Below are positions 5,926-63,982 of a stretch of 64,000 nt of DNA, piece by piece; positions within the stretch are counted from its first letter, which is position 1, and every line of letters starts with the position of its first letter. The notes beneath the pieces are model-generated. The model was not told the origin of the DNA. It saw nothing but the letters and a program-made list of their open reading frames with translations, and ran no database searches. The position numbers and the translations under genes are program-made. Source of the DNA: a virus; IMG/VR virus record IMGVR_UViG_3300027977_000009; one strand, 5' to 3'.

Positions 5926-6001
5926 GCGCTGTTAGCTCAACGGTTAGAGCGTCGGACTCATAATCCGCAGGTTGAGGGTTCGAATCCCCCACGGCGCACC
6001 A
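5926..6001 (+). tRNA. tRNA(CAT), probably Ile2 (lysidine substrate)
   Basis: Loop CT-CAT-AA; directly upstream of tilS; separate Met and fMet tRNAs are present. Confidence 0.85.
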
Positions 6002-6020
6002 TTTTTAACGAGAGACAATC

Positions 6021-6698: not shown

Positions 6699-6712
6699 AT
6701 AAATATTAATAC

Positions 6713-6802
6713 GGAAGCGTGGGTGAGCGGTTGAAACCTACAGTCTTGAAAACTGTCGAACCTGAAAGGGTTCCGTGGGTTCGAATCCCACCGCTTCCTC
6801 CA
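6713..6802 (+). tRNA. tRNA-Ser(TGA)
   Basis: Class II; ACAGT-CTTGAAA-ACTGT. Confidence 0.95.
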
Positions 6803-6813
6803 ACATAATATAC

Positions 6814-6899
6814 GGGGGAATGTCCCGAGCGGCAAAGGGGAGGGACTGTAAATCCCTTGGCGTTAGCCTTCGTAGGTTCGAGTCCTACTTCCCCCACCA
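6814..6899 (+). tRNA. tRNA-Tyr(GTA)
   Basis: Class II; AGGGA-CTGTAAA-TCCCT. Confidence 0.95.
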
Positions 6900-6929
6900 A
6901 TATTGTTCGTATGAAATGAAGGAAAGACA

Positions 6930-7319
6930 ATGCCTGGATACTATCTTTTTCTAGACGATATTCGTTACCCAAGCGATGTGCTTTGGGTACAGATTCCCCG
7001 TGACCATGTCTATGAGGTTGTTCGTAGTTATGACGAATTCGTATCTCACATCATTAATAACGGTATTCCAAACTTTGTCACGTTCGACCATGACCTGGCT
7101 GATGAACACTATGTAGCAATGCTTCAAGAGTGCGAAGGTAAGGAACATGTAGACTATGGTGTTGAAAAATCAGGTTACGATTGTGCTAAATGGTTGGTAC
7201 ATCATTGCGCTGAAATAGGGTTAATGTTTCCCAACTATATGGTTCATTCAATGAACCCAATCGGAAAAGAAAGAATTGATGCTTACATCGCAAATGCAAA
7301 AAAGCATCTGAATATCTAG
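6930..7319 (+). CDS. Cyclic-phosphate-processing receiver-like domain protein (RNA-repair associated)
   Basis: LFLDDIR, VRSYDEF, FDHDL, SGYDCAKWL, VHSMNPIG. Confidence 0.7.
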   Translation: MPGYYLFLDDIRYPSDVLWVQIPRDHVYEVVRSYDEFVSHIINNGIPNFVTFDHDLADEHYVAMLQECEGKEHVDYGVEKSGYDCAKWLVHHCAEIGLMFPNYMVHSMNPIGKERIDAYIANAKKHLNI

Positions 7320-7409
7320 GAGGGTTGCCAGAGTGGCCGAATGGGCTGGTTTGCTAAACCATTGTACCTCTCAAAGGTACCGAGGGTTCGAATCCCTCAC
7401 CCTCCACCA
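7319..7409 (+). tRNA. tRNA-Ser(GCT)
   Basis: Class II; loop TT-GCT-AA. Confidence 0.93.
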
Positions 7410-7448
7410 TATTGCATAAATAGTGTATCAACATTGAGGATGTTATTC

Positions 7449-8441
7449 ATGGATAGTCGTGCAGACATGCGAAAACTAATCTCGATCTGTGAGGGTATTC
7501 ATACCCAAGGCCCAGATCAAAGGGCGCCCGATACTTTTCCGGTATCTGGTGAGTTTGCGCGTGATAAGCGGAAAGATGATAAGCGTTATGGTTCTCCTGA
7601 AACAAATCAAAAAAAGCACGAAATCGCGACCGCGCTAGCAACAGAGTGGTCCAAGATAGAGGATCAGATCACAGGTACTTCTTCTCACGAAAAGATCACT
7701 CAGCTTGAGAAGAAAAAGGAAGAGCTATTAAACATCGCGAGAAAATATGAGATCGGCAATATCCTGACCTATATCATTTCGGCGAGGTCGGCTCGAAGAG
7801 ATAAAACAGAATCAATTGACCCGATCTATGAAGGCTGGGATGATGACGATGAATATGAGAAAGAGCCAATGCTTAAGCTTGATCTCAGAAATATCCCAAT
7901 CAATATGGGACTTTACGGACCTAAAAAAGCACAGAAAATTGCATACAAAGGGGTACGTGGTCTCATTGACGGGACGATTGATGAATACGATTTCCGTGAC
8001 TGCGAACGCGCCTTCCGTCAAGCGTGTGATCTACTTGATAATCATGGCCTGATCCCGTTGATCCGTTCTTCTAAAGTAGAATTTTTCGAATTGCCCGTCG
8101 CTTTACATGACTATAATGGAGTAGCGCCACTTTTAGGTTTTGGACGGATATGGGTAGACAGCCGAAAGTCTGCGTCATCCATGGCTAACACGATCATTCA
8201 TGAATTGGGTCACATCCTGCACCAGAGCGTCCCGAGTTCATTCTTCCCGTCACTGATCAAATTTTTTTCTCGTTCATGGTCAAAAAACGGAGACGATTGG
8301 TTCCCGACTGATTACGCCCGAACCAACACAATGGAATTCTTCGCTGAACTCTTTACCGCATATGTACACGATGAACTAAGTGGGCCACAGCAAGCTTGGA
8401 TGGACAAGTTCGTCAGGCGCTATCTTCGGTGGAGACGCTAA
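7449..8441 (+). CDS. Late protein with C-terminal zincin metallopeptidase
   Basis: HELGH ... TDYARTNTMEFFAELF; ATAAATA upstream; leader DMRKLISICE. Confidence 0.65.
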   Translation: MDSRADMRKLISICEGIHTQGPDQRAPDTFPVSGEFARDKRKDDKRYGSPETNQKKHEIATALATEWSKIEDQITGTSSHEKITQLEKKKEELLNIARKYEIGNILTYIISARSARRDKTESIDPIYEGWDDDDEYEKEPMLKLDLRNIPINMGLYGPKKAQKIAYKGVRGLIDGTIDEYDFRDCERAFRQACDLLDNHGLIPLIRSSKVEFFELPVALHDYNGVAPLLGFGRIWVDSRKSASSMANTIIHELGHILHQSVPSSFFPSLIKFFSRSWSKNGDDWFPTDYARTNTMEFFAELFTAYVHDELSGPQQAWMDKFVRRYLRWRR

Positions 8442-8514
8442 ACAATCGGTTATTTAGCTGCTTTTACGGCAACAGATTCTAGACGAGTGTAAGTTTTTCA
8501 CCATAAGAAAAAGG

Positions 8515-8543
8515 TTGACTTCACCTACCCGTTTTGCTATATT
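8515..8543 (+). promoter_or_regulatory. Early promoter (repeated phage consensus)
   Basis: TTGAC-N16-GCTATATT; near-identical copies at 18213, 21501, 22104, 22699 (+) and 35538, 37284, 48819 (-). Confidence 0.8.
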
Positions 8544-8579
8544 GAATTATAGAAATTGAATAGAGCAAAGGAAAGATAC

Positions 8580-8819
8580 ATGAGCGATTCGGTACATGAA
8601 CTAGCTGCCGCAATGCGGAAAGTGACTGAACTTCGCAACACGAAAGCACATCGTAACACGCTCACCGCAGCAATCAAGCGGCTTCGTAAGGTGGCGATTG
8701 AATGTGATACTAGACATGGCATTGAGGATCCTAAAAATTGGGCATCTGACTATCTCGTAGCAGTTAGTAGCGGGTTCCCTTGGTATGAACGATATGCCAA
8801 AATCGCAGCAGACTTTTGA
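8580..8819 (+). CDS. Hypothetical early protein
   Basis: ORF after early promoter and AAGGA RBS. Confidence 0.6.
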   Translation: MSDSVHELAAAMRKVTELRNTKAHRNTLTAAIKRLRKVAIECDTRHGIEDPKNWASDYLVAVSSGFPWYERYAKIAADF

Positions 8820-8837
8820 TTGTATAAAACGAATAAC

Positions 8838-8919
8838 GCACCGTTGGCAGATTGGGAATGCGGTGGACTGCAAATCCGCTACACAAGTGAAGTAGGTTCG
8901 ATTCCTACACGGTGCTCCA
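8838..8919 (+). tRNA. tRNA-Cys(GCA) with enlarged variable region
   Basis: GCACCGT/ACGGTGC-TCCA; GTGGA-CTGCAAA-TCCGC; variable TACACAAGTGAA. Confidence 0.88.
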
Positions 8920-8941
8920 ATTACTTTGAAAGGAGGAGAAA

Positions 8942-9103
8942 ATGTCTGGATTAGTATTAGCTAAAACGGGTAAGAGATATACTCGTCAAGAATGGGTGAG
9001 TATGGATCCTGAGGAACGAGAACTTCTACTGAGTAGAAACGGTCCCGCCTACACAGACGAAGCGTGGAAAAGACATTTCGGCAATAGAAAGAAAAATAAA
9101 TGA
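8942..9103 (+). CDS. Small hypothetical protein (53 aa)
   Basis: Strong AGGAGG RBS; stop overlaps pth2 start (ATGA). Confidence 0.55.
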   Translation: MSGLVLAKTGKRYTRQEWVSMDPEERELLLSRNGPAYTDEAWKRHFGNRKKNK

Positions 9104-9513
9104 AGTATAAAATGTACGTTATCTTTGCCCTCGAATCAGTAAAGAAAATGAACGGAGTCCGTGGCAAACTTGCCTCGATGAGCGGACATGCTTACCTACA
9201 CGCTTATTGGGATGCAACCATTCCCAATGCAAGACATACTGAAATTGCTGAACCTGAAGTTTTTGCTAAGAAACAAGAACAAGCGTTAGCATATGCCCAC
9301 AGTGACCATGCGTATAAGATCACTCTGATTGTGGACACTGTTGACGAACTTAGGGAACTTCAAAAGAAGCATAAGGACATCTGCGGAACGAGCCTTGTTA
9401 CTGACGCAGGCTTCACGGTATTTGATGAGCCTACCACGGTTTGTCTTGGCATCGGGCCAATACGAGAAGATAAAATCGGTGATGACATCAAGGCATTGAA
9501 GACCTTCTGCTAA
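9100..9513 (+). CDS. pth2: Peptidyl-tRNA hydrolase, PTH2 family
   Basis: KMYVI..GKLASMSGHA, KITL, DAGFT, TVCLGIGP. Confidence 0.85.
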   Translation: MKYKMYVIFALESVKKMNGVRGKLASMSGHAYLHAYWDATIPNARHTEIAEPEVFAKKQEQALAYAHSDHAYKITLIVDTVDELRELQKKHKDICGTSLVTDAGFTVFDEPTTVCLGIGPIREDKIGDDIKALKTFC

Positions 9514-9583
9514 GTCATACTAAAGTTTGGTTCTTTGTCCAAATCATCACAAGCAAACTATAACCCAAAATGCACGTAATAAA

Positions 9584-9658
9584 GGTCGATTAGCTTAGAA
9601 GTAAAGCACCCGCCTGATAAGCGGGAGACGGTAGGGGCGGTACCTACATCGACTACCA
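9584..9658 (+). tRNA. tRNA-Ile(GAT), atypical T-loop
   Basis: CCCGC-CTGATAA-GCGGG; T-loop GGCGGTA. Confidence 0.88.
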
Positions 9659-9701
9659 ATTTTATATACTTGATGTAGTTGGTTAGAACTTTTAAAACTA
9701 A

Positions 9702-9777
9702 GCTAGGTTAGTGTTAGCGGTTAGCACACGAGTTTGTGGAACTCGGCGGATTGGTTCGAATCCAATACCTAGTACCA
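9702..9777 (+). tRNA. tRNA-His(GTG), alphaproteobacterial type
   Basis: CGAGT-TTGTGGA-ACTCG; no encoded G-1; G1.U72; A73. Confidence 0.9.
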
Positions 9778-9783
9778 TTTAAT

Positions 9784-9859
9784 GACAGTATAGCTCAGCT
9801 GGTAGAGCGTTGGTCTCATACGCCGAATGTCGTTGGTTCGAGTCCAACTACTGTCACCA
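9784..9859 (+). tRNA. tRNA-Met(CAT), elongator
   Basis: Paired 1-72; loop CT-CAT-AC. Confidence 0.88.
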
Positions 9860-9876
9860 AACTTACTAGAAATTAT

Positions 9877-9956
9877 GGCTGTAGGGACTGCTTGGTGTGG
9901 TCGCCGGACTGTCACTCCGGATGTTCAGAGGGATTCGAATTCCCTTACAGTCGCCA
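9877..9956 (+). tRNA. tRNA-Asp(GTC)
   Basis: CCGGA-CTGTCAC-TCCGG; G73; CCA. Confidence 0.88.
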
Positions 9957-10031
9957 TTTTTAATACCCAAAACACTGTACAACAGTGATCGTCTATACTA
10001 TAATGAGAAAATAGAAACAAAGGAAACACAC

Positions 10032-10595
10032 ATGAAGATCAATCTACGCAAGGCCAACGCTATTCAAGTAGCGATCAACGAGATGATTAAGGGCCTCGAA
10101 TTCAATGCCACGACTAGCATCAACGAGTTCCAAGACGCTGCTAATGAGATTGGTGCCGCATCTGCGAAGTTTACTCGCAACCTTGCTCGTCGTGTTGCTT
10201 TGCTCGATGCCCTTTACGAGATTCGTAAGGCTGTTGCGTCGGCAAATGATAGAACAGGCATCGATAACCGTCTTGCTGACGTTGCTCGCCTTGAAAAGGA
10301 CTTTCAGTTCTACAGCACGTATGCAAAGGCTTCGGTCATTGCTGATTCCGCTGTCATCAACGGCAAGCTAGAAAAGATTCGTAACCGCAAGGAAGATGCT
10401 TATTCTTACCGAGACGAGACGGTCGACACCTCCATCTTCACTCATAGTCAAGTTGACGGTTTCAAGGATATCGTTGCTTCTGCTAAGAAGCAGAAGCAGA
10501 AGCTGCAGGACGAACTCCTTGAGTTGAACGTCCGTACTGAAATTGAGTTTTCGGCGGCAACTGTTACTACGCTCACCAACGAGAAAATCCTTTAA
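10032..10595 (+). CDS. Helical/coiled-coil hypothetical protein
   Basis: AAGGA RBS, ATG 10032, codon usage typical of a highly expressed gene. Confidence 0.75.
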   Translation: MKINLRKANAIQVAINEMIKGLEFNATTSINEFQDAANEIGAASAKFTRNLARRVALLDALYEIRKAVASANDRTGIDNRLADVARLEKDFQFYSTYAKASVIADSAVINGKLEKIRNRKEDAYSYRDETVDTSIFTHSQVDGFKDIVASAKKQKQKLQDELLELNVRTEIEFSAATVTTLTNEKIL

Positions 10596-10925
10596 GGGGT
10601 ATATTGCTGGTCTAATCAACGTTAAGGTAGATCACAGTTATCGATAAGTTTGGTAGTCAAGCATCTTAATTGATGTAAACTACCCGGAAGGAAAAAAGAG
10701 ACGAGAGTAGGCCTTAACATTGAGCTGGCGCTTGAAACGCTGAACACTAGCATGAGTCAAACCTATTTTGTTGCACGTTGTGGTTTGAGTATAAGTTAGT
10801 TTTTGTAGTTTGTTTTTTGTTGATTGCTTGATAGGTTGTTCTTGTATGAGCCACCGATGCAGATTGCACAGTCTATCACTTACTTTTTTCCTTCTGTATT
10901 TTTTTTATAATAGGCAAAATAGTTC

Positions 10926-10996
10926 TTGACATTGAGGTCAAGAACAAGTATATTAAGTAAATCAAGACGAGAAATTGACTTGACGTTCTTTGAAAT
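10926..10996 (+). promoter_or_regulatory. sigma70 promoter + boxA
   Basis: TTGACA-N17-TATATT; GTTCTTTGAAA at 10985. Confidence 0.7.
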
Positions 10997-11006
10997 TGTA
11001 GATTTA

Positions 11007-11137
11007 TATACTCATTAGATGGGTAGTGGCTCGCTCCTAACCGTACATAAGGGGCCTTGTCACTTCAACAGGCTCTAGTCCAGCTGGCTAACCTGCTCTC
11101 GTCTTGATAGTAAACCACTATCCTTCTAATGAGTATA
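11007..11137 (+). ncRNA. Third stem-flanked small RNA cassette
   Basis: TATACTCATTAGATGGGTAGTGG / CCACTATCCTTCTAATGAGTATA helix; shares TAACCGTACA with the 1016-1135 cassette. Confidence 0.6.
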
Positions 11138-11151
11138 AAAATATAGTTTAT

Positions 11152-11228
11152 CGCGGGGTAGAGCAGTTTAGTAGCTCGTGTGGCTCATAACCACAAGGTC
11201 GGAGGTGCGAATCCTTCTCCCGCAACCA
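11152..11228 (+). tRNA. tRNA-fMet(CAT)
   Basis: CGCGGGG 5' end, C1xA72 mismatch, CAT anticodon. Confidence 0.9.
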
Positions 11229-11229
11229 A

Positions 11230-11303
11230 GCTCCTATAGCATAAAATTAATGTACTGCGCTTCCAACGCAGAGAAGTCGGGGAGGTACCGACTGGGAGCT
11301 CCA
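11230..11303 (+). tRNA. tRNA-Gly(TCC), atypical D and T loops
   Basis: CTGCG-CTTCCAA-CGCAG; U73; T-loop GGAGGTA. Confidence 0.82.
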
Positions 11304-11310
11304 GTTTAAT

Positions 11311-11386
11311 GCGGGTATCGTATATAGGTATTACACAACATTGCCAATGTTGAGAAATGGGATCGTCTGGCCCATTACCCGCTCCA
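11311..11386 (+). tRNA. tRNA-Gly(GCC), 9-nt T-loop
   Basis: GCGGGTA/TACCCGC-TCCA; CAACA-TTGCCAA-TGTTG. Confidence 0.85.
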
Positions 11387-11455
11387 TTTCTATATTCCTA
11401 ACAAATGTGCTTAACTATTTCTATCCAACCATTCTTCTGCGCAAGTAGGACAAGC

Positions 11456-11531
11456 ATAAATACACATGCTGGTACCCGCTACAGTGTTAGAGTGGTCGGG
11501 ATAGTCATCCGCGAACTACATCTTTATTTAT
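11456..11531 (-). ncRNA. Orphan copy of the endonuclease-leader RNA element
   Basis: Minus strand ATAAATAAAGATGTAGTTCGCGG...CCC...TCTAA...CAGCATG..TATTTAT matches 54304-54383 and 61523-61601. Confidence 0.7.
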
Positions 11532-11533
11532 GA

Positions 11534-12037
11534 TTGGAAGCTAAAGTTTTAATTATCTCATACCAAGGTATATATGACGGGCAGAACTTTGAGTCTGCTA
11601 ACACCCCGGGACAGATAGGCAAAGCCTTCAATAACGGGTTTTCCTGCATGGTTGACGTATGGCGGTTTGATAATAAGTTATATCTAGGTAGAGAAAACGA
11701 CTGGATAGAAGTCACTGATCGTTATCTACAAGGCAATCGATTTTGGCTCAATTGTCAAAACACTGATGCCTATGCTTATTTAATATCGCAGCCTGTTAAA
11801 CTATATCCCAATGTATTCAAGTTCAGTGATGTTAGCACCGAATCTGTGCCTACAACATCAAGGGGTGGACAAATCATCGTTCCTGGAAACGTGCCCATTG
11901 ACAACAACAGTGTTGTTTATTTGCCTGAGATTGTAGATAGAGGCATGCTTAGCACTGTTAAATTGCGTTGTTATGGTATAACTAGCATATATTGTACATT
12001 CATTAAGAGAATACGCAATGAAGGGCAATGGTACTAA
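11534..12037 (+). CDS. Degenerate glycerophosphodiester-phosphodiesterase-like protein
   Basis: IISYQG...NTP.QI..A...GF..VDVW..LYLG resembles the GDPD N-terminus without the catalytic His; start codon uncertain. Confidence 0.5.
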   Translation: MEAKVLIISYQGIYDGQNFESANTPGQIGKAFNNGFSCMVDVWRFDNKLYLGRENDWIEVTDRYLQGNRFWLNCQNTDAYAYLISQPVKLYPNVFKFSDVSTESVPTTSRGGQIIVPGNVPIDNNSVVYLPEIVDRGMLSTVKLRCYGITSIYCTFIKRIRNEGQWY

Positions 12038-54242: not shown

Positions 54243-54303
54243 TAATTACCTTTCTTAATATATGTATACTATCATAATAGTATATATGTTGTCAATCAAA
54301 AAG

Positions 54304-54383
54304 ATAAATAAAGATGTAGTTCGCGGTACTGCAAATACCCAACTACTCTAATGCTAAGAGGAGCGATCAGCATGACTATTTAT
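54304..54383 (+). ncRNA. Structured leader RNA element of GIY-YIG gene
   Basis: ATAAATA ... GTAGTT/AACTAC, GGTA/TACC, TCTAA, RBS hairpin, CAGCATG..TATTTAT. Confidence 0.7.
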
Positions 54384-55040
54384 ACCCACCATCTTTATTG
54401 GATTCATCTTCCAGAGCATACTGACTACACTAAGGAAGGGTACATAGGCGTTTCTAATAACCCAGCCAGACGACTTTACGAGCATAAGAATGATTCTAAA
54501 AACCGCAACGACAAAAATCCTTATTTCGGTAGAGTCCTCAAAAAACATCAAGATAAAATAATCCAAACAATATTGTTGACCGACACCAAAGAAAATTGTT
54601 ACAGACAAGAGGAAATACTAAGACCTGAAAAAAACATAGGATGGAATGCTAATAAAGGCGGAACAAAACCTCCGTCTAAATTAGGCTGGAAACCAAGTGA
54701 AGATACCTTAAAGAAAAGATCAGAATCATTAGCAGGCATTCCTAGGAATGATGTTTGGCGTAAAAATTTATCAAAAGCTAAAAAAGGCGAAAGGAACGGA
54801 ATGTATGGGAAAAAAATATCCTGCACCGACAAGAGAAAATTATCTATTATAGTAGCAAAATATAAAAACAGGGGCGAAAATCTAAGGTTAGCACTTGATT
54901 TGCTAGAAAAAAGCAATCACCGAATACGAGAAATTTCAAAACTAACAGGTATCTCTACTGGCGTTATATGTAAGATAAAGAAAGAAACAGAGTTATATAA
55001 TTTAGCTCTTCCAATAATCATACAATCTAAAGCTAGCTAG
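54372..55040 (+). CDS. GIY-YIG homing endonuclease with NUMOD3-like and HTH segments
   Basis: LYWI...GYIGVS...RRLYEH...E...GWN..GG; GERNGMYGK. Confidence 0.85.
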   Translation: MTIYTHHLYWIHLPEHTDYTKEGYIGVSNNPARRLYEHKNDSKNRNDKNPYFGRVLKKHQDKIIQTILLTDTKENCYRQEEILRPEKNIGWNANKGGTKPPSKLGWKPSEDTLKKRSESLAGIPRNDVWRKNLSKAKKGERNGMYGKKISCTDKRKLSIIVAKYKNRGENLRLALDLLEKSNHRIREISKLTGISTGVICKIKKETELYNLALPIIIQSKAS

Positions 55041-56018
55041 GTTCTTGGCCTTTGCCTCCACCATAACATCTGCCCAATCCCAGTGCCCTTTAGCCCAATC
55101 ATTGACTGCTTTATTCCACATATAGTCAGAATGTGCCCGCAACTTCTGCTTGTTCAACCCTTGTTCTAGCAGAAGTTGAAGGTTAGGCAATTCATTAGTA
55201 AGATGTGATGACAAATATTCTTCACGACTTACACTGTAATGAATGACAGGACGTACACCACGCCAGCTATCGATCACGCGCTTGATACGGTCGTCATTGG
55301 GTTCGATATATTCACCAGTCATTACATAGTGATGATGGATATCTAGTACGAGAGCGCAGGTATCAGCGAGTTCTAGACTGCTATCGATACCCCAAGTCAT
55401 CTCGTCATTCTCGATAGTGATGCAATTACGAGCCTCGGGGCTTAGTCGAGACATTACCTTCTTGATACCGTCGGGGCCCTGACGACCACTGATATGAACA
55501 TTGATCTTCATGTCCTGAAAAGTCTTGCCATAGCCCATCCAACGTGCCATGTCAACATGATATTCGAATTCTCGGATACTGTTTTCTACGACTTCTTCGC
55601 GATCACTAGCAAGGACTACAAATTGATCGGGATGAAATGATAGACGGACACTGTTCTTGCGTGCAGTCTCACCAATCGGAGCCATCCAACGTGCTAGACT
55701 GTCTTGCACATCTTGCCGCGACCAAAAATAATGATAATCGGGATGCGTGTAGAAACTCAACATATCACTGGTGATACGCAACATGCGTAGTTCGACAGGA
55801 AGAGTCGCAATTTTTTTGACGAGTGCGTGAGTGTTTAGGATGTTACGCTTTGCGACATCTAGGATCTTTTCTTCGACCACACGTGAGTTGTTCTGACGTT
55901 TTGCCCATGCGAGTGTGGTACCGCCTGTATTGAATCCATCGACACTAGCGATCTCACCCTTAGTATTGATTTCTGCAAACTTACATGCGAAACCAATTCG
56001 TTTGACACCATCATTCAT
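55002..56018 (-). CDS. uvsE: UV damage endonuclease
   Basis: RIGFACK, RLSFHPDQF, IENDE, LDIHHH, AHSD, MVEAKAK. Confidence 0.9.
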   Translation of the reverse strand: MNDGVKRIGFACKFAEINTKGEIASVDGFNTGGTTLAWAKRQNNSRVVEEKILDVAKRNILNTHALVKKIATLPVELRMLRITSDMLSFYTHPDYHYFWSRQDVQDSLARWMAPIGETARKNSVRLSFHPDQFVVLASDREEVVENSIREFEYHVDMARWMGYGKTFQDMKINVHISGRQGPDGIKKVMSRLSPEARNCITIENDEMTWGIDSSLELADTCALVLDIHHHYVMTGEYIEPNDDRIKRVIDSWRGVRPVIHYSVSREEYLSSHLTNELPNLQLLLEQGLNKQKLRAHSDYMWNKAVNDWAKGHWDWADVMVEAKAKNLASFRLYDYWKS

Positions 56019-56051
56019 AGATAAATACTCTCATAATATAAGGAACCGTTA

Positions 56052-57278
56052 ATGGATATTCGTAACATCTTAGATATCATAAGTGAAAATTCTCGGCCTG
56101 TCAAGCAAAAAACACCTGTTTCGGGTGGGTTGCCGGCGATGTCTCTTGAAGATTTTCTTCTCAGTGCAGGGGTAAACCCACAAGAAGTAGAAATTGACGA
56201 AGCAAAATTAGCGGCCCCCGCAAGACCTTTTCCAAAAGACGAATTAACAAAATACTTAAGCAGGACTGTAGGTACCGATACAGGCAAGGTCAACAAAGCA
56301 GGCGGCAAGATTCGCAAGAGTGAAAAGACTAAACAAGATAAGTTCAATATGCCATACATTCATAATAAGAATGTTCCCATCGTCGATGAAGCAAATAAAG
56401 AATATGATCTAGAAAAGCTAAGAGCTATGATTACCAAACGTCCGGCAAAAGTTCTCAAGCAAAATGAAAAGATGCAACATAGTGATGGTACTGCTAGTGC
56501 GTTTTACAACATTGGACTTCCTGCTCTGAAAGGCCTAGCAGTTGATGAAGATACCGGTGAGTTCGTGATCATTGACACTTGTCCTGGCGCCGGCGAATGC
56601 CAGACATATTGCTATGCAATGAAAGGTGACTATATCAGGTGGACGAGCCCATCACTCGAACAGTCTAAGCTATTGAACTTCTTGTATAATGATCCGCAAG
56701 GATTCATGGATATGCTAGGAAACGAGATCGAAGAACAATATAAAAAGCTAAAAAAAGTCGATAAGAAGAAAGGTACTGAAACTAAACTTATCATTCGTTG
56801 GCATGATGCTGGTGATTTCTTCTCACCGGAATACCTTAACTATGCGTATACCTTAGCTAAGAAGTATCCTGACGTATCTTTCTATGCGTATACTAAATTA
56901 GCAAACGTTGCTCAAGGTAAATCTCCGGCTAATTTTAAAATGAATTACTCGATGGGCGCGAAGCCCAAAGAAGAACAACAGATCGATTTCGCAACTACTA
57001 AGAATAGCCGAGTTGTTCCTGAAGTATTATTCAAAGACGTTCTTGATAGGGTAGAAGGTAAGCTCGTATATAAAGATCAATCATCGATCAATGTATTGAA
57101 GGCTCGAATCGCTGCTAAATATAGTGTCAAGCCTAATACAATATTGACCTATGACGAGATGATGAAGAAGCCAGTCAGTAATGAAAAGGGTAAGTATAAT
57201 GTCATTGTTAAACCGGGAGACGGAGATGACTCTGCTAACCGCAATGACGTGCTTAACACATTTCTATTAATGCATTAG
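56052..57278 (+). CDS. Gene product 88-like (radical-SAM-related) late protein
   Basis: TCPGAGECQTYCYA, IRWHDAGDF, FYAYTK; leader MDIRNILDIISE. Confidence 0.7.
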   Translation: MDIRNILDIISENSRPVKQKTPVSGGLPAMSLEDFLLSAGVNPQEVEIDEAKLAAPARPFPKDELTKYLSRTVGTDTGKVNKAGGKIRKSEKTKQDKFNMPYIHNKNVPIVDEANKEYDLEKLRAMITKRPAKVLKQNEKMQHSDGTASAFYNIGLPALKGLAVDEDTGEFVIIDTCPGAGECQTYCYAMKGDYIRWTSPSLEQSKLLNFLYNDPQGFMDMLGNEIEEQYKKLKKVDKKKGTETKLIIRWHDAGDFFSPEYLNYAYTLAKKYPDVSFYAYTKLANVAQGKSPANFKMNYSMGAKPKEEQQIDFATTKNSRVVPEVLFKDVLDRVEGKLVYKDQSSINVLKARIAAKYSVKPNTILTYDEMMKKPVSNEKGKYNVIVKPGDGDDSANRNDVLNTFLLMH

Positions 57279-58126
57279 GAAAGTTTCAACAACTCGTTAA
57301 ACGAATATAGATTTTTCATATAGGGGGACACTTCTTCTAGTACGCTACAAGATATGTCCCCTTTTCTGCGGGGTCCAATCTTTATCTTGATACCTGCTTC
57401 GTCATCATCAGAATAAATGGTTTCTGCGTTTACCATTTCAAATTTCTCAAAGATTTCCAGTACCGAATATCCTACACCATGACCCAAGCATTCTACTTTA
57501 TTGGCAGGTTGCTCGATAGCCATCTTGATTGCTTCACATACTTCGTCTACGTGAACATAATCTCGAATGCAGGTACCGTCTGGGGTATCATAATCATCAC
57601 CAAAAATAGTAAACTCTTTCGTGTCAGCAGCCTTCATCAGGTTGTACATCAACCCGTCTGGATTAGTAGGAGGATAACCCGATGAACCGATCACGTTATA
57701 GAATCTAAAAATCGTATATGGCATAGTCTTATGCTGGGTACAATATTCACGAACCACATCTTCTGCTGCTCGTTTCGAGATTCCATATGCACTCTTGCAA
57801 TGTTCTGCTGCACCGGTCGATGCAAAAATAAAGTTCTGTGTCTTTACTTTATTGATTACATTCATCGTCCCATTCAAATTAGTAATATAATACTGAATAG
57901 GCATATTTTCACTCTCGCCAACATTTACAAGTGCAGCAAGATGCACAACTATATCGAATTCTAAATCAATATTCAACGGACGATTGATATCAAGTTGAAA
58001 GAATTCCTTGACTGGATGCAATGGCTGCCTAATGTCAAGTCCATATACTTCGTAATCTTTCTCAAGCAATTTACAAAGATGTGATCCAATGTAGCCCGAA
58101 CATCCTGTTACTAATATCTTTTTCAT
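57275..58126 (-). CDS. galE: NAD-dependent sugar epimerase (UDP-glucose 4-epimerase-like)
   Basis: GCSGYIGSH, YGISK, RFYNV, DGTCIRDYVHV. Confidence 0.88.
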   Translation of the reverse strand: MKKILVTGCSGYIGSHLCKLLEKDYEVYGLDIRQPLHPVKEFFQLDINRPLNIDLEFDIVVHLAALVNVGESENMPIQYYITNLNGTMNVINKVKTQNFIFASTGAAEHCKSAYGISKRAAEDVVREYCTQHKTMPYTIFRFYNVIGSSGYPPTNPDGLMYNLMKAADTKEFTIFGDDYDTPDGTCIRDYVHVDEVCEAIKMAIEQPANKVECLGHGVGYSVLEIFEKFEMVNAETIYSDDDEAGIKIKIGPRRKGDISCSVLEEVSPYMKNLYSFNELLKLS

Positions 58127-59466
58127 AGTCCCTCGAATAATCCCAATCCAACCATTTCCTCAGCTGGTTCAAAGTTGGGTTCTTTAGTCAGATATGTATT
58201 GGTATCTGTATAAATCACCCTAAACTTATTCTTGTTCATCAACACCGACTTGATGTCATCGATGCATAGGATACCCCGATTCAATCCATTTATAAAATCT
58301 ATGTACTTAATAGTAGTTTCTTTACAAATCTTAGCCGTATTGCTATTAGACGTTTTTGGTTTGAATGAATTGAAACACTCATTCCATTTATGGAACACTT
58401 GGCTTTCGATCTTATTCGCATTTACCAAAGCTCCCTTAATATACCATGCTTCAGCGGTATCGAACATCTCATATGCCTCTCGCACGTCGTTTGCCATGTT
58501 TTTCTTGTCGGTTTCAAAGAAAAACTGAGAAGAAAAGTTTTGAGTCCATCGTTGATTCATTAAGCAGAAAGTAGGTAATTGCATAGTCTGTTCATAGAAA
58601 GCCATACCATAGCTTTCGACTGTGCTGGGGTTAAATGCTATCCTAGCACTCGTGATGAAGTCTACTTTTTCTTTGCCGATAATGCCCACCTTGATCTCAT
58701 AAGTAGCATTGATTTTCTTCAATCGTTCTTCAAACTTCTTAGCTCCGGCTGCGCTTGTCATTACCTTAGCTGGCAAGTTAGTCTGTTCGATCAGATCGAT
58801 AAACAACTCGGGGTTCTTCCCTTCTTCCCAACGTCCAATGAACAACACACCTTCTCTAGGCTTGACGTACTGATTTAGTAATTCTTTCTCAGTTACTGGA
58901 ATAGGAAGATGAGTAGCTGTATTATCGAACTGAAGTTCATTGAACTTGCTTTGTGTACCGATAGTGATGTTATTCATCTGCAACTGCAATCGCATCATCT
59001 CATTGGTGCTATGAAAGAATGGATTCTTCGTATCTTTGAAAATCTGACTCTCAAGATGAGTATATGCGATGACCTGTACGCATTCATCAAGTCCCATAGT
59101 ACTCGCTACTTGAATAGTTTCATAGGTATTACATACTAGTACGTCATAGATGTTGGTAGTGAATGCTTTAACGATAGCATTACGGAAATTGGCCATTCTT
59201 TCATAGCAAAAACTATCTTCATACATAAAGATAGCACTATGATCGGTATACTTGAGTGGGATGTCTGGATAGATCACCCTAGCATCGAATGATTCTAAGA
59301 ACTCTGTGCTAAGTCCTTGCGGAGCTTTGTCGGTTATGATATCTACTTTAATTCCATGACTATTCATCGTTTCACAGAAACTCTTAGCGAACTGTCCTAT
59401 TCCGCCGTGTGGAATTAAGGTCTGAGAACTGACTAGAAATCCAATACGTTTGTTATAGGTATTCAT
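58123..59466 (-). CDS. GT-B glycosyltransferase (GT4-like)
   Basis: HGGIGQF, LFIGRWEEGKNP, PSTVESYGMAFYE. Confidence 0.8.
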   Translation of the reverse strand: MNTYNKRIGFLVSSQTLIPHGGIGQFAKSFCETMNSHGIKVDIITDKAPQGLSTEFLESFDARVIYPDIPLKYTDHSAIFMYEDSFCYERMANFRNAIVKAFTTNIYDVLVCNTYETIQVASTMGLDECVQVIAYTHLESQIFKDTKNPFFHSTNEMMRLQLQMNNITIGTQSKFNELQFDNTATHLPIPVTEKELLNQYVKPREGVLFIGRWEEGKNPELFIDLIEQTNLPAKVMTSAAGAKKFEERLKKINATYEIKVGIIGKEKVDFITSARIAFNPSTVESYGMAFYEQTMQLPTFCLMNQRWTQNFSSQFFFETDKKNMANDVREAYEMFDTAEAWYIKGALVNANKIESQVFHKWNECFNSFKPKTSNSNTAKICKETTIKYIDFINGLNRGILCIDDIKSVLMNKNKFRVIYTDTNTYLTKEPNFEPAEEMVGLGLFEGL

Positions 59467-59475
59467 ATTTTACCT

Positions 59476-60330
59476 TTACGTTCCCCAGCGGTTACCAAAC
59501 AAAGGTAGATGTAGTCGATCACTATATCTGACACCATACTTCATTGCTAACTCGGCAACTGTAAGGTTATTCAATTGATATACACTCTCTACTCCACCGA
59601 CGGGCATGAAATATACAGGCCCCTCAAAACCCTCATCACGATATAGCTTAGATACTTCAAGTGCTTCCTGAGCATCTTCTTCTGTAGAGATCACAAACTT
59701 GAGGTATGCATAGCCAAATTTCTCATATTCACGCACAACCTTAGGTTTGATCGCACTCTTATGAGACTCACCGGAACAACTTAACTTAGGACTGACGCTA
59801 AAAGTGATTTCTCGTTCAAATCCCGGATATACTTCTGGCCAGCTCCAGTCTTCAAGATAGTGTGCGAACTCAGGTGAAAGTTCCTGTGTACCATTAGTCT
59901 CAAAAGTAATCTCTTTGAGACCCGCCATCTTAGGATGACTCAAGAGTTTTGGGAAAGCTCGCTGCCATCCAAGTAGTGGTTCTCCTCCTGTGATGACAAG
60001 ATGTTCGTTTTTCCATTCTTTAAACGGTAGTAGTTCCATGATGTCATCAACAATGGTATCAATGTCCTTACTAGGAGAAAGATGCTTAAATCGAGGGTCC
60101 CATGAGGCGTAAGAATCGCAACCAGTGGTGACGAGTGGGAGAGAATTGTAATCTTTGTAAACTTTCGGGTCGATCTTTTTCCGTTCAACAGACGTTTCTC
60201 CCTTAGGCATACCAAATCCTCCACACGTGAAGTTGCAGCCAAACGTTCTTAGGAAAATGCTAGGTACGCCTTGATACCTGCCTTCACCCTGAATAGAATA
60301 AAATAGTTCACTAATCTTGATTTGCGTCAT
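59476..60330 (-). CDS. queE: 7-carboxy-7-deazaguanine synthase (radical SAM)
   Basis: ELFYSIQGEG, FLRTFGCNFTC...CDS, ITGGEP, ETNGT, SPKL. Confidence 0.9.
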   Translation of the reverse strand: MTQIKISELFYSIQGEGRYQGVPSIFLRTFGCNFTCGGFGMPKGETSVERKKIDPKVYKDYNSLPLVTTGCDSYASWDPRFKHLSPSKDIDTIVDDIMELLPFKEWKNEHLVITGGEPLLGWQRAFPKLLSHPKMAGLKEITFETNGTQELSPEFAHYLEDWSWPEVYPGFEREITFSVSPKLSCSGESHKSAIKPKVVREYEKFGYAYLKFVISTEEDAQEALEVSKLYRDEGFEGPVYFMPVGGVESVYQLNNLTVAELAMKYGVRYSDRLHLPLFGNRWGT

Positions 60331-60476
60331 TGTCTCGTTCTTTTAGATATTCTTCATATGTCTTATATTTGTCGCCCGATTTGTAAATCCAACCTTCATA
60401 TAAGTTATCTGGATCGTAGAAAGGAATAGAATACAAATGCCTACCATTCTTAGCATCTATATAATTCACAATTTTA

Positions 60477-60899
60477 TTATGCATCTATGCATTCTTCTCT
60501 TAGGTATCGCACTAATTCTTTATCAGTAGGTTGTACAGCATAGTTGTTCTTAAAGAAAATCTCATAACTATCACTGCCATACTTTCCTATACCATAAAGA
60601 ACTTTAGCATCACTCTTGTCCCATGTCAAGTATTGATTGGACATCCTTCTAATTCGGTTTTCCCGAACAATGACTAATCCAAGCGGACGTATAACTTCAT
60701 ATACTTCTTCGCTCGTACTTGTCAAGAACTTCTCACATGTGTCCCATCTAGATAAGAATTCAGGAAGGACCCTTTTTACCAACAACCTATGAGTCTGGTT
60801 CAGCATGATCACCCCTACCATATGTTGCCACTCGGATGTAATCTGTTGTTGAACCATTAGCTCGTCACATAACGGAACGATATTCACTACTTCCACCAC
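60477..60899 (-). CDS. HhH-GPD DNA glycosylase (MBD4-like)
   Basis: IMLNQT, PLGL..R, LYGIGKYGSDSY.IF, PTDKEL. Confidence 0.8.
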   Translation of the reverse strand: MVEVVNIVPLCDELMVQQQITSEWQHMVGVIMLNQTHRLLVKRVLPEFLSRWDTCEKFLTSTSEEVYEVIRPLGLVIVRENRIRRMSNQYLTWDKSDAKVLYGIGKYGSDSYEIFFKNNYAVQPTDKELVRYLREECIDA

Positions 60900-61441
60900 C
60901 GCTCCCAGGGAAATCGAATAGCGACCGGATCTTCAATTTTGTTTATGGCTTCCCCAAAATAGTCGATTCCTTCAAAATCACTTGCTTCGTTCTCTACCAA
61001 AACAGCAAACTTCACATTATGATTCCAAACTGAATCCCAAGCTTCTTTTTGATCCGGGAAGCAGCTATTAATCCAATCTTGTTTAATCCAATCAAAGGTC
61101 ATGCCGCTATCATTGATGTCATCCACGATCAGGATATTTTTACGCTTTTTGGTATCCCAACGACTTTTTATGACAGGGCGATCATCCGACGAAACATACC
61201 CAAATGCATCTTCAGACATCCAGGCATTTAGTTCAGTATCAGGGGGATCGCTGCGCAAACTGACTTTTAGTGTATGCATTGGAATATTCAAATAATGGCT
61301 AATCATTAGAGCAGGAACTAATCCTCCTCTGGTAATGCCTACAACATAATCAGGTCGAAACTGGTCTACAGTAATCTGTCTTATGATGTTATGAACCATA
61401 CCGTCAATCTGTTTGTCAGTGTAATATACTTTCTTAGTCAT
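60887..61441 (-). CDS. Type I phosphoribosyltransferase (Gpt-like)
   Basis: VVGITRGGLVPA, ILIVDDINDSGMT, FPWE. Confidence 0.88.
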   Translation of the reverse strand: MTKKVYYTDKQIDGMVHNIIRQITVDQFRPDYVVGITRGGLVPALMISHYLNIPMHTLKVSLRSDPPDTELNAWMSEDAFGYVSSDDRPVIKSRWDTKKRKNILIVDDINDSGMTFDWIKQDWINSCFPDQKEAWDSVWNHNVKFAVLVENEASDFEGIDYFGEAINKIEDPVAIRFPWERWWK

Positions 61442-61522
61442 TATATACTTTCTTAGTCATTATATACTTTTTATATCAATAAATTATTATATACTATTTA
61501 GGTTAGGTTGTCAAGAAAAAAG

Positions 61523-61601
61523 ATAAATAAGCGTGAGTCACGGAACTCCCATTCCCACTCACTCTAATAGTTGAAAAGGAACTACCAGCATGTCTATTTA
61601 T
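61523..61601 (+). ncRNA. Structured leader RNA element of endonuclease gene
   Basis: GTGAGT/ACTCAC and GGAA/TTCC covary with the copy at 54304. Confidence 0.7.
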
Positions 61602-62288
61602 TCTGTCTTTACACCCTATACTTACTTTATTATGTGGCGAGGCACCAATACCAAATATTATGGCTGTCAGTACGGCAAAAAAGCTAACCCAGAGAACATA
61701 CTGACCGGTCGATATACTACATCGTCAGTTAGTGTCAATGAACATTGGCAAAAGTACGGGCCTCCAGATATAGTTGTTATTCATCGTACTTTTACTACAG
61801 CAGCAGAATGTAGATTATATGAGCATACTTACATAAAAAGAGTAAAGGCGGTGTATAAGGAAGATTGGCTTAATAAATCCGATAGTAAAGCAATTTTAAC
61901 AGACAACTACTCGGATTCTTCATGGAAGAATAGTCACAAAAGTAGGCGGAGGCACATGGAAGAGGATCCGGAATTTCGGAAATTTATGGTAGATAGATTC
62001 GTTAACCTGATGCAATCGGATGCAGCAAATTTAAAACGAAAAGAAACGTTCGTCCGAACAAAGCATTCGCAAGGAGAGAACAATCCTAGATTTGGTGCTA
62101 TACTGACCCCTGAAATTTTAACAAAAATCTCAGAGGCCAGAAAGAAACAATATTCTTTAAATAAATCATTGGCAAATAAGCTAAACCAAAAGAATCGTTC
62201 GTGTGAATATTGCGGCAAGTCAGGACTTAATGCTGGAAATTATAAAAGATGGCATGGAAATAAATGCAAAATAGCGGGAAATAAATAA
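61590..62288 (+). CDS. Seg/GIY-YIG-like homing endonuclease
   Basis: YTYFI.W...KYYG...YTTSS...E...WLNK; GENNPRFG; CEYCGK...RWHGNKC. Confidence 0.8.
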   Translation: MSIYSVFTPYTYFIMWRGTNTKYYGCQYGKKANPENILTGRYTTSSVSVNEHWQKYGPPDIVVIHRTFTTAAECRLYEHTYIKRVKAVYKEDWLNKSDSKAILTDNYSDSSWKNSHKSRRRHMEEDPEFRKFMVDRFVNLMQSDAANLKRKETFVRTKHSQGENNPRFGAILTPEILTKISEARKKQYSLNKSLANKLNQKNRSCEYCGKSGLNAGNYKRWHGNKCKIAGNK

Positions 62289-62307
62289 TTATTCCCCACT
62301 GATTCTA

Positions 62308-62787
62308 TTATAGAAACTCGCCGTCTTCTCTATGGCCTTGCCTGTATGCCATGTTTGATGGGGTTTCTCTCACTTCTACTTTCGCACACCAAACTCTTGC
62401 AGCCTCTGCCTCGCCGCAGGATGGAAGGAAAATAGTATTCACATATTCATACAGGTAATCTGCAAGTCCCTCGCATCCGGTCTTTTCAACCTCAATTATC
62501 TTTGCCAATCCTAATTCTCCTAGTTGCTTAATGGTATCATAGTATGGATCATCTTGGGCTAAAAGTAATACGTGGTCAAAATTATCTTCTAGGAAATCCT
62601 TAAGTGGCCGGAGCCCACCGTAATCAAAACACCAATTTCGGGCGTCAAGGTCATCGCATTCAAATTCAAATTTGAAAGACAATGCATAGCCGTGTATTAA
62701 ACGACAGTGACTATCCGCTCGCCATTGCCGATACGCCAGAGGCGCAAGGTGTGAATATTCTTTAGTTGATACATATTTTTTTGTCAT
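62308..62787 (-). CDS. queD: 6-carboxy-5,6,7,8-tetrahydropterin synthase (QueD/PTPS)
   Basis: SHCRLIHGY, DYGGL, FDH, EGLA, VEVRETPSN. Confidence 0.88.
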   Translation of the reverse strand: MTKKYVSTKEYSHLAPLAYRQWRADSHCRLIHGYALSFKFEFECDDLDARNWCFDYGGLRPLKDFLEDNFDHVLLLAQDDPYYDTIKQLGELGLAKIIEVEKTGCEGLADYLYEYVNTIFLPSCGEAEAARVWCAKVEVRETPSNMAYRQGHREDGEFL

Positions 62788-62805
62788 CTTTTTTCTCCTT
62801 TAGAT

Positions 62806-62850
62806 GACACGCAGAATGTTTATAGTGGGAATGAGTGTCAAAGACCACTG
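62806..62850 (-). promoter_or_regulatory. Pseudoknot riboswitch candidate upstream of queD (copy 1)
   Basis: AGUGG-UCUUUGACACUCAUUC-CCACU-AUAAACAUUCUGC-GUGUC, then AAGGAG. Confidence 0.6.
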
Positions 62851-63028
62851 TTAATAAGCATACCGACGATTGATGTAGTCAAGGATATCCTCAACTTCAC
62901 AAAAGCCTTCTGCATTATAAATCTGATTTAGATCAAGACCATGATCCTGATATCCTTCTCCGAGCATATTTGATAATAGTTGCCTGGTTGATTTGCCATA
63001 TTTTAATCTCCTATATTAGCATAACATA

Positions 63029-63070
63029 GGCGGCAGAATTTGTCAAGCGGGAATGACGCCAAGACCGCTG
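63029..63070 (-). promoter_or_regulatory. Pseudoknot riboswitch candidate (copy 2)
   Basis: AGCGG-UCUUGGCGUCAUUC-CCGCU-UGACAAAUUCUGC-CGCC; covaries with copy 1. Confidence 0.6.
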
Positions 63071-63071
63071 T

Positions 63072-63275
63072 TTATTTGATACGCTGAATAACTATGAATC
63101 CATGTCTGATCATAGTTGCATCGCATCCAATCCTATTTATCGTATTCTCAACCAGCTTAATCATTTTAATGCTGTTACCGCAGATGATAGTTAGTGGGAA
63201 CTCATTCTGGTTCATTAGAACGAAGTTCTCCACTAACAGATCAACATCCTGGTGTCTAACACCGTGAAGGTCTAG
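63072..63275 (-). CDS. Small Smr-like protein
   Basis: LDLHGVRH ... IICGNS; start approximate. Confidence 0.55.
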   Translation of the reverse strand, partial: LDLHGVRHQDVDLLVENFVLMNQNEFPLTIICGNSIKMIKLVENTINRIGCDATMIRHGFIVIQRIK

Positions 63276-63301
63276 CTGGGCCATTGATATGATAAATTCC
63301 G

Positions 63302-63982
63302 TTAGCACTTACTCATGCGAGCGATACTAAGAAACTCTGCACGAGCAGCAGGGTCAGACTTGAATCCGCCGCCCAGCTTACACGTTACTGTGCTTGACCC
63401 TGTATCTTCTACACCGCGCGACTTAACACAATAGTGCTGGGCATCAATCATGACTGCAACATCTTCGGTTTCAAGAATGTAGCAAAGAGTGTGAAATACC
63501 TGTTCAGTCAAACGCTCCTGAATCTGTGGCCGCTTGCTGAAATATTCAACAATACGATTGATCTTGGATAGACCAAGAACCTTTTCGTTGGGTACATACG
63601 CAACAGTAGCAAGACCGTCAATTTGGACAAAATGATGTTCACAGTTACTCATAACAATAATGTTACGCTCTACTACCATTTCATCGTAGTTCATCTTGTT
63701 GTCAACTGTAGTACACTTGGGAAATGCTTCGTAGTCGAGGCCCCAAAAGATTTCACCTACATACATTTTGGCAACACGCTTGGGAGTTTCAATAAGACTA
63801 TCATCACTTAGGTCAAGCCCTAAGGTTTCCATGATATCCTTAAACTTGCGTTCAATGATCTCAATTTTGTCGGTTCTGCTGAGATTGTTTTCGATAGTGG
63901 GAGTTTCAACCCCCATCTTTACAAGATGTTCATGGACGAGACGACCCAATTCGGGGTCACATTTATTTTTATTAAAAGACAT
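63302..63982 (-). CDS. folE: GTP cyclohydrolase I
   Basis: ETPKRVAKMY, CEHHF, GLSKINR, RPQIQERLT, HYCVKSRG. Confidence 0.95.
   Translation of the reverse strand: MSFNKNKCDPELGRLVHEHLVKMGVETPTIENNLSRTDKIEIIERKFKDIMETLGLDLSDDSLIETPKRVAKMYVGEIFWGLDYEAFPKCTTVDNKMNYDEMVVERNIIVMSNCEHHFVQIDGLATVAYVPNEKVLGLSKINRIVEYFSKRPQIQERLTEQVFHTLCYILETEDVAVMIDAQHYCVKSRGVEDTGSSTVTCKLGGGFKSDPAARAEFLSIARMSKC

Follow-up and report, generated by a model that had tools for sequence, protein, structure and literature searches.

The three dispersed repeats that we analysed in IMG/VR virus record IMGVR_UViG_3300027977_000009 (the window, all 64,000 nt of the stretch) belong to a large, undescribed family of ~75-base cassettes that head homing endonuclease genes (HEGs) in uncultured large phages. 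Their helices carry the marks of selection on the strand opposite the gene, and a late-promoter motif stands at each end of the element. On balance, we favour the reading that the cassette encodes a cis-antisense small RNA of ~65–70 nt limiting nuclease production, comparable to RNA-OUT of IS10.

All three copies lie where the initial annotation had placed them (54304–54383 and 61523–61601 on the plus strand, copies A and B; 11456–11531 on the minus strand, copy C) and have the layout that it had described, alignable across ~90 nt. The 5′ half of this layout consists of (N)ATAAATA, 3–5 nt, P1 (GT and four variable nt), C-R-C, the P2 hairpin, one base and P1′. The 3′ half consists of TCTAA, the P3 helix with the Shine-Dalgarno (SD) sequence in its loop and (R)YCAGC-ATG-NN-TATTTAT. 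The pattern ACTCTAA-N10-30-CAGCATG occurred three times in the window versus 0.01 times expected, and covariance model R1 scored the three copies at 89.3, 79.9 and 64.3 bits, with the next best window hit at 15 bits.

Family members were identified by two pattern scans of IMG/VR, and all family counts given here rest on the matches listed from both scans (at least 186 distinct copies). The first scan (ACTCTAA-N10-30-CAGCATG-NN-TATTTAT) returned at least 126 matches in at least 120 loci. The second, in which the 5′ half alone was forced, returned at least 120 loci, 65 of them new. R1 found 118 and 92 copies in the loci from scans 1 and 2, respectively. Five large phage records (161–361 kb) held 13, 8, 4, 3 and 1 R1 copies, the 13 being present in one 361-kb genome. 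Four true matches were detected in bacterial genomes, all on 2–3.5 kb contigs of metagenome-assembled genome bins (two ‘uncultured Bacteroidetes’, one ‘Bacteroides sp.’ and one Erysipelotrichaceae). Since these contigs are probably phage DNA binned in error, they identify no host, and PHROG scans of 10 large window open reading frames (ORFs) gave no lineage marker.

Sense-strand single-sequence folds of the window copies were no better than shuffles (z = −1.1, −1.7 and +0.3), so the case for structure must rest on comparison rather than thermodynamics. In an alignment of 115 sequences (A2) with a 14-pair structure, 94.7% of cells were paired versus 70.7% after shuffling, which upheld the covariation first proposed from the three window copies. 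Cells with double changes numbered 388 versus 97 in shuffled alignments (0/500 shuffles reached this number) and occurred in 12 of the 14 pairs. Slid control alignments had 28–46% of cells paired, and all 11 pairs that RNAalifold predicted on A2 had compensatory changes. At the gathering threshold, Rfam 15 matched only tRNAs in the window (26), and at E ≤ 1 it gave no match at the elements of three loci with seven copies. The covariance-model and Rfam comparison thus assigned the element to no Rfam 15 family. No description of the module was found in the literature searched, in which the nearest topics were T-even leader hairpins, CfrI and IS10/IS200.

The genes behind the element were tabulated from 115 complete downstream ORFs (105 of 138–532 aa and 10 of 11–56 aa), and the 97 distinct long ORFs were scanned against Pfam and PHROG. 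Pfam domains included NUMOD3 (29), GIY-YIG (14), HNH_3 (6) and HNH (6). Matches to PHROG homing-endonuclease families included phrog_314 (49 ORFs) and phrog_655 (16 ORFs), as well as several GIY-YIG/HNH families. This bore out the proposal that a covarying element of ~80 nt travels with homing endonucleases. In the window, copy A heads homing endonuclease A (54372–55040, plus strand), identified by its GIY-YIG and NUMOD3 Pfam domains and by phrog_314, and copy B heads homing endonuclease B (61590–62288, plus strand), a SegE-like GIY-YIG protein by transitive homology with a C-terminal Cys/His cluster. Nuclease B had no sequence match in Pfam, PHROG or PDB, its family profile included. Jackhmmer grouped it with element-linked ORFs, some carrying NUMOD3 or SegE_GIY-YIG, and it is a member of the largest element-linked family, placed there by its relatives alone.

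The initial annotation had suggested a nuclease-bound RNA, acting as operator or cofactor. This is unlikely, because one element heads GIY-YIG/NUMOD3, SegE-like, HNH, HNH_3 and other families, and with unrelated nuclease folds behind one RNA module no single fold can be the ligand. The further suggestion that the element also exists independently of a nuclease was not supported either, since such copies elsewhere precede decayed genes: the short ORFs (10/115) were mostly N-terminal nuclease stumps, several with GIY-YIG or HNH N-terminal sequence. Copy C (11454–11541, minus strand; 64 bits) has its promoter at 11531–11525, P1/P2 at 11519–11492 with one A·C and one U·G in P1, P3 at 11490–11469, the ATG at 11467 and the box at 11462–11456. 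Its ORF has 18 codons (MCIYACPTCAEEWLDRNS; 11411–11467, minus strand) and is followed by tRNA genes from 11383 instead of a nuclease gene. As short ORFs elsewhere are truncated endonuclease N-termini, copy C is best read as a solo remnant. The adjoining region (window 1–11400) holds 26 tRNA genes in one cluster with interspersed ORFs. Copy C abuts the end of this cluster, an arrangement that recalls the SegB/tRNA region of T4.

Strand preference was assessed from wobble pairs counted on the 186 distinct copies, and as these are related sequences the P values that follow overstate their independence. On the gene strand, the junction pair 32–52 was GC in 121 copies, AU in 24, A·C in 41 and G·U in none (Fisher test, P = 4e−13), with the A·C found in 31 different helix contexts. 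Across P1 and the first three P2 pairs (~1,670 cells), A·C occurred 17 times versus two for G·U (P = 7e−4). In the P3 extension, the base after CTAA and the base two before CAG formed C·A in 68 copies, U·G in one and Watson-Crick pairs in 97 (Fisher test, P = 8e−8). The last A of CTAA (A63) and the base before CAG formed A-U in 120 copies and A·C in 46, and the A of CTAA opposite the C of CAG (A62·C93) was an invariant A·C. All gene-strand A·C cells at the junction, in P1/P2 and in the P3 extension are G·U wobbles on the opposite strand. The direction of wobble agreed at four independent sites of the structure, and the antisense bias was present in every neighbour-orientation class.

The folds pointed the same way. 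Pairing between the invariant boxes CTAA and CAG is possible on the antisense strand only, where it extends P3 to a helix of ~8 bp (CUGRY-GCU...AGC-RUUAG). For the same alignment columns, the RNAalifold folding term was −16.0 kcal/mol on the antisense strand versus −8.6 on the sense strand (total, −36.6 versus −27.2), and the antisense form of the P1/P2 hairpin was the more stable in 94/159 copies (Wilcoxon test, P = 1e−4). This indicates that selection acts on the helices as formed by the strand opposite the gene. A pseudoknot between the P2 loop and the conserved boxes was also considered and was dropped by eye, the loops having no invariant complement.

The TATTTA box provided a second line of evidence. 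In the scan that left the 3′ half free, 129 of 156 copies had TATTTA 5 nt downstream of CAGC. Around it, the position of the start codon and the frame vary, with ATG-NNT-ATT-TAT (‘MxIY’), ATG-TAT-TTA (‘MYL’) and other offsets. With its spacing fixed while the frame moves, the box is a nucleic-acid signal and not a protein motif. Read on the antisense strand, it is TAAATA, the core motif of the late promoter. The element is bounded, as first described, by the late-promoter motif and its inverse, and the best reading of this ‘exact inverse’ is another late promoter that faces the first. Cassettes pointing the same way as their neighbours, for which host antisense transcription is unexpected, retained the box in 18 of 21 cases.

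On the sense side, TAAATA preceded P1 by 3–5 nt in 170/180 copies (~93% in a scan that did not force TAAATA). Throughout the window, ATAAATA occurred 37 times versus 19.7 ± 4.2 expected, and it stands before many ribosome-binding sites (RBS) with an ATG. A sigma factor of the gp55 family (phrog_234) was detected in all five element-bearing genomes tested (E = 1e−22 to 1e−61); these genomes, G001–G005, are the IMG/VR records behind loci L046, L051, L066, L074 and L023. T4 gp55 reads TATAAATA. T4 late promoters occupy positions −13 to −6 (PMC2988020), a spacing that places the predicted antisense +1 at the G immediately 5′ of hairpin 1, the antisense form of the extended P3. At the other end, the antisense strand after hairpin 2, the antisense form of P1/P2, reads AC-UUUUAUUUAU, which is the complement of the sense promoter. 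Here, 5–7 U were found within 10 nt of the hairpin in 177/187 copies, behind a bulged stem of ~11 bp with a mean of −10 kcal/mol. Copies without a sense TAAATA keep an A-run at this place (CAAAAAT).

Several further observations concern these late-type signals. In the four records of 259–361 kb, the gp55-family sigma is a longer, divergent form, with frames of 302–314 aa versus 185 aa in T4, of which the central ~100 profile positions alone align. Elsewhere in the window, ATAAATA is followed by CATG after 2–4 nt at 1994, 22084, 29439 and 31675 (plus strand) and at 39671 (minus strand). These sites share the arrangement of the antisense side of the element and may reflect an initiation-region preference. 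Back-to-back divergent ATAAATA motifs, 9–22 bp apart, at 12500/12527, 16165/16181 and 39665/39694 suggest divergent late promoters.

The mechanism that we propose is that of a portable control cassette for free-standing HEGs in phages with a T4-type (gp55) late sigma factor. Two late promoters, ~75 bp apart, would face each other. The sense promoter ((N)ATAAATA or CTAAATA) would drive the nuclease mRNA with a leader of ~60 nt, and the antisense promoter, the TAAATA core within the TATTTA(T) box that occupies the first codons behind the ATG, would set +1 at the G facing the final C of CAGC. The resulting RNA would fold into hairpin 1 (~8 pairs), presenting the SD complement in its loop, and hairpin 2 (~11 pairs), which together with the AC-UUUUAUUUAU tail resembles an intrinsic terminator and may end the transcript. 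The antisense RNA, a perfect complement of the leader over its full length as far as the start codon, could block ribosome binding or trigger cleavage of the duplex, either of which would keep nuclease synthesis or mRNA stability low; the facing promoters possibly add transcriptional interference. Stem sequences differ from copy to copy, so every antisense RNA would be specific to the gene that it overlaps.

Both gene-bearing window copies can be laid out in this way. In copy A, the sense late-promoter motif (GATAAATA, 54303–54310, plus strand) reads on the minus strand as the U-rich tail after hairpin 2. Hairpin 2 itself, the putative terminator, is the P1/P2 hairpin GTAGTT-CGC-GGTA...TACC-C-AACTAC (54316–54346, minus strand), placed there by covariation, wobble asymmetry and fold. 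The extended P3, CTAAT-GCT...AGC-GATCAG (54348–54370, minus strand), corresponds to hairpin 1 with the SD complement as its loop, and the TATTTAT box in codons 2–4 (54377–54383) gives a minus-strand ATAAATA, the putative antisense late promoter. From the T4 promoter-to-start spacing (PMC2988020), the box spacing and the folds, the predicted antisense RNA of ~67 nt (54305–54371, minus strand) would extend from the G opposite C54371 to the U-run. Copy B has the same sense motif (GATAAATA, 61522–61529, plus strand), followed by the P1/P2 hairpin GTGAGT-CAC-GGAA...TTCC-C-ACTCAC (61533–61562, minus strand; covariance model and fold), the extended P3 as hairpin 1 (61564–61588, minus strand; fold) and the TATTTAT box as putative antisense late promoter (61595–61601, minus strand). 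Its predicted antisense RNA, placed by the same considerations, would be ~66 nt long (61524–61589, minus strand). A32·C52, a mismatch on the sense strand of copy B, is a G·U pair on the antisense strand, and the fold of this copy reached −19.6 kcal/mol antisense versus −14.0 sense.

A more speculative extension, which we regard as possible though doubtful, is that every nuclease has a private antisense RNA with matched stems of freely varying sequence. One genome could then accommodate up to 13 nucleases, every nuclease being under a throttle of its own that scales with the number of genome copies, as in the multicopy inhibition of IS10. The module, whose two promoters each double as a flank of the other transcript, would be swapped between GIY-YIG and HNH genes. 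If true, this would amount to a general domestication device for selfish nucleases, and possibly to a weapon or shield in mixed infections.

Against the antisense RNA stand a number of observations. Approximately 10% of copies have a one-base change in the box (e.g. TATATAT, TACTTAT), and in the MYL variant position seven of the box is C, A or G, giving GTAAATA or TTAAATA, which are almost never seen at the sense promoter. A simple terminator scan does not call hairpin 2, owing to its bulged stem, and in about one-third of copies (spacer GGT or AGT) the tail begins ACCUAUUUA, a mediocre U-tract. The inner P3 pairs have no strand bias (G·U 8, A·C 14), and the relatedness of the copies tempers the wobble statistics. 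Megablast of the region and blastn of the element against GenBank phages gave no match and thus no cultured carrier. Finally, since most cassettes are inverted relative to their neighbours, antisense transcripts could stem from host operons and not from the box.

This last point bears on the sites at which the cassettes are found. The element is mobile as part of an HEG insert. Of the two flanking genes named by the initial annotation, queD was confirmed at copy B (QueD/PTPS), while the ‘uvsE’ at copy A is UvdE (PF03851, E = 3.5e−41). Both gene-bearing copies were inverted to these genes, as had been noted, and the distance from each to the −35 box of a minus-strand promoter was measured as 8 nt (TTGACA at 54295–54290 and 61514–61509). 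Comparison of empty and filled sites revealed that the uvdE site is polymorphic, the element being absent from 76/80 uvdE relatives. In L186 and L187 (87% amino acid identity in UvdE), the empty site joins window positions 55017 and 54275, and the stop codon of uvdE overlaps the RBS and ATG that belong to the gene behind it. By comparison, the filled site is longer by ~740 bp (approximate cassette extent, 54276–55016) comprising the HEG, the element and an outward TTGACA promoter, with a TATGAT repeat at the flanks, and the insert gives UvdE a new C-terminus. The outward promoter, sigma-70-like by motif scan (TTGACA-18-TAGTAT, 54266–54295, minus strand), has its −35 box and most of its spacer inside the insert and its −10 at or just past the junction. 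The corresponding promoter at copy B (TTGACA-17-TATAAT, 61486–61514, minus strand) matches the sigma-70 consensus at 12/12 positions.

At the queD site, homologues of nuclease B (57–59% identity) occupy the same position after queD in L273, L302 and L310. A second copy of QueD residues 131–159 was present in L266–L272, 0.6–1.4 kb downstream of the intact gene and past the nuclease and element. It seems that the queD-site cassette supplies the host gene with a replacement 3′ end, much as the copy A insert gives UvdE a new C-terminus. On the other side of copy B, the first 19 nt of a phosphoribosyltransferase gene (ATGACTAAGAAAGTATATA, minus strand) are tandemly repeated two to three times (window 61420–61480). 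The repeats separate the outward TTGACA/TATAAT promoter from the true start of the gene (61441) and resemble an insertion or recombination scar of the nuclease cassette. A 12-bp hairpin with a T-run (62273–62300, minus strand) separates the stop codon of queD from the 3′ end of the nuclease B gene and is likely a terminator shielding the nuclease gene from queD read-through. The surrounding genes (window 56052–63982) encode QueD/PTPS, the phosphoribosyltransferase and a 447-aa protein, and may belong to a 7-deazaguanine pathway. In Synechococcus phage BUCT-ZZ01, the best phage relative of the 447-aa protein overlaps an annotated ‘GTP cyclohydrolase I’.

Across the family, the HEG was inverted to both neighbours in 53/93 fully scored loci and co-oriented in 21, and it was inverted to the upstream neighbour in 119/175. 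An outward TTGAC accompanied 34/119 cassettes with a divergent upstream neighbour versus 2/56 co-oriented ones. These figures favour the strongest rival to the antisense RNA, although we still consider it unlikely, namely that the cassette is a terminator or insulator on the antisense strand with no discrete regulatory RNA. The hairpins would stop host transcripts backing into the inverted HEG, the outward promoter would restart the host gene and the box would be no working promoter. The U-rich tail after hairpin 2 fits such a function, as does the filled uvdE site, where HEG, element and promoter have been added at a point at which uvdE overlapped the start of the next gene. However, hairpin 1 is left unexplained, and so is a frame-independent TATTTA box at a fixed 5 nt from CAGC. 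Co-oriented cassettes still keep the box (18/21), the hairpins and the wobble bias (A·C 7 versus G·U 3), and at copy B a hairpin with T-run (62300–62273) already separates queD from the HEG.

The hairpins could alternatively act on the sense strand only, as a cis-regulatory leader in which P1/P2 is a stabilising 5′ hairpin, P3 presents the SD and the box is a translation or repressor site, for instance for a RegA-like protein. Promoter, SD and ATG do stand in fixed register, the SD is held in the P3 loop, the inner P3 pairs accept sense U·G (7 cells) and leader hairpins control T-even HEGs (PMC2988022). We rate this reading as less probable than the insulator, because the strand evidence runs counter to it: sense G·U was nearly absent from P1/P2 (2 in ~1,670 cells) while A·C was tolerated; the junction pair, P3 extension and invariant CTAA/CAG pair form on the antisense strand alone; the sense consensus fold is half as stable; and sense single-sequence folds did not surpass their shuffles.

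Lower again in our ranking, and improbable, is a read-through mask of the T4 type, which could coexist with an antisense RNA. In RNA started upstream, UAAAUA of the promoter would pair with UAUUUA of the box and close a three-way junction round the SD and AUG, so that only late transcripts would be translated. The box is an exact complement of the promoter core, minimum free energy folds of 3/3 window copies close the promoter/box helix and the same logic is documented for I-TevI, segB and Aeh1 mobE (PMC2988022). However, the promoter/box helix had no covariation at its sole variable position (promoter C with box G 0, C with T 30), and the box survives loss or shift of the promoter (L021, L087, L095, L016, L008). 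These two results speak against an SD sequestration of the I-TevI type in upstream-started transcripts. Moreover, the helix would amount to 6–7 A-U pairs closed over a 60-nt insert, sense read-through is unexpected given that most cassettes are inverted, and the antisense wobble bias is left unexplained. A DNA-level signal (single-stranded DNA hairpin, homology module for recombination or cassette exchange, or nuclease recognition site) is very improbable: HEG cassettes that are otherwise unrelated share the element as their 5′ end and carry it along when they move, and folded single-stranded DNA also tolerates G·T, but the stems vary freely yet stay paired, unlike a recognition site or homology arm, one site cannot serve different nuclease families, and the promoter, SD and terminator-like features suit RNA.

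Homing endonucleases shape phage genome exchange, and an RNA family with hundreds of members, absent from Rfam, heads several unrelated families of these nucleases in large uncultured phages. If the cassette does encode an antisense RNA, homing endonucleases would have a general antisense throttle, the first of its kind, and the cassette would be a compact case of two facing late promoters, each sequence having a second role on the other strand. The R1 model also provides an annotation marker for free-standing HEGs and their remnants in metagenomic phage contigs.

As a class, the element combines two known kinds of control, antisense control of mobile-element enzymes and leader control of HEGs. 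In SymR/symE and type I toxin-antitoxin pairs, a toxic nuclease-like gene has its 5′ end and ribosome site overlapped by a small cis-antisense RNA, but these systems are chromosomal and SOS-linked rather than mobile HEG cassettes, and their promoters and RNA architecture are unrelated. The ‘promoter-early stem-loop’ (PeSL) cassettes of T4-type phages, reportedly described by Arbiol et al. in 2010, are said to repeat a short promoter and stem-loop before variable genes and perhaps to favour modular shuffling; they reportedly differ in having early sigma-70 promoters, no tie to HEGs and no facing promoter pair. To our knowledge, how HEGs are controlled has been worked out only in a few T-even examples based on sense-strand hairpins.

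In these T-even and Aeh1 HEGs (I-TevI/II/III, segB, mobE), leader hairpins contain embedded late or middle promoters, and the sense hairpin sequesters the SD in read-through transcripts (PMC2988022). The cassette shares with them a late promoter directly upstream of the HEG and RNA structure round the SD, with a delaying or limiting effect on nuclease synthesis that is predicted here. It is more elaborate than the T4 arrangement of late promoter plus RBS hairpin, as the initial annotation had recognised. Selection acts on its helices as read from the opposite strand, a sense helix of only 3–4 bp holds the SD in its loop, a second, facing promoter motif follows the ATG, and nucleases of several families share one module. 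A precedent for antisense RNA at a phage HEG is CfrI of the T4-like cyanophage S-PM2, an RNA of ~225 nt that lies opposite an HEG and psbA and is co-expressed with the HEG (Millard et al. 2010, cited from PMC2984593). Compared by description, CfrI is longer and links the HEG to psbA, and the parts of that account available for comparison describe no two-hairpin module or facing late promoters.

The closest parallels are found in insertion sequences. RNA-OUT of IS10, an antisense RNA of 69 nt, is complementary to the site where translation of the transposase mRNA begins and acts in a copy-number-dependent manner (PMC5006887), and IS200 has the antisense RNA art200 (PMC4513863). As in these elements, promoters (putative in the cassette) face each other at the 5′ end of the element’s gene, a structured antisense RNA of ~70 nt, predicted here, is complementary to the translation start region, and a selfish element would limit its own potentially harmful enzyme. 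The copy-number dependence of IS10 would also be plausible in replicating phage DNA. Unlike IS10 and IS200, the cassette is known from sequence comparison, its target would be a homing endonuclease rather than a transposase, and its putative promoters are of the phage late (gp55) type. It further differs in its two hairpins, in a terminator-like tail that doubles as the sense promoter and in its hundreds of variants with private stems.

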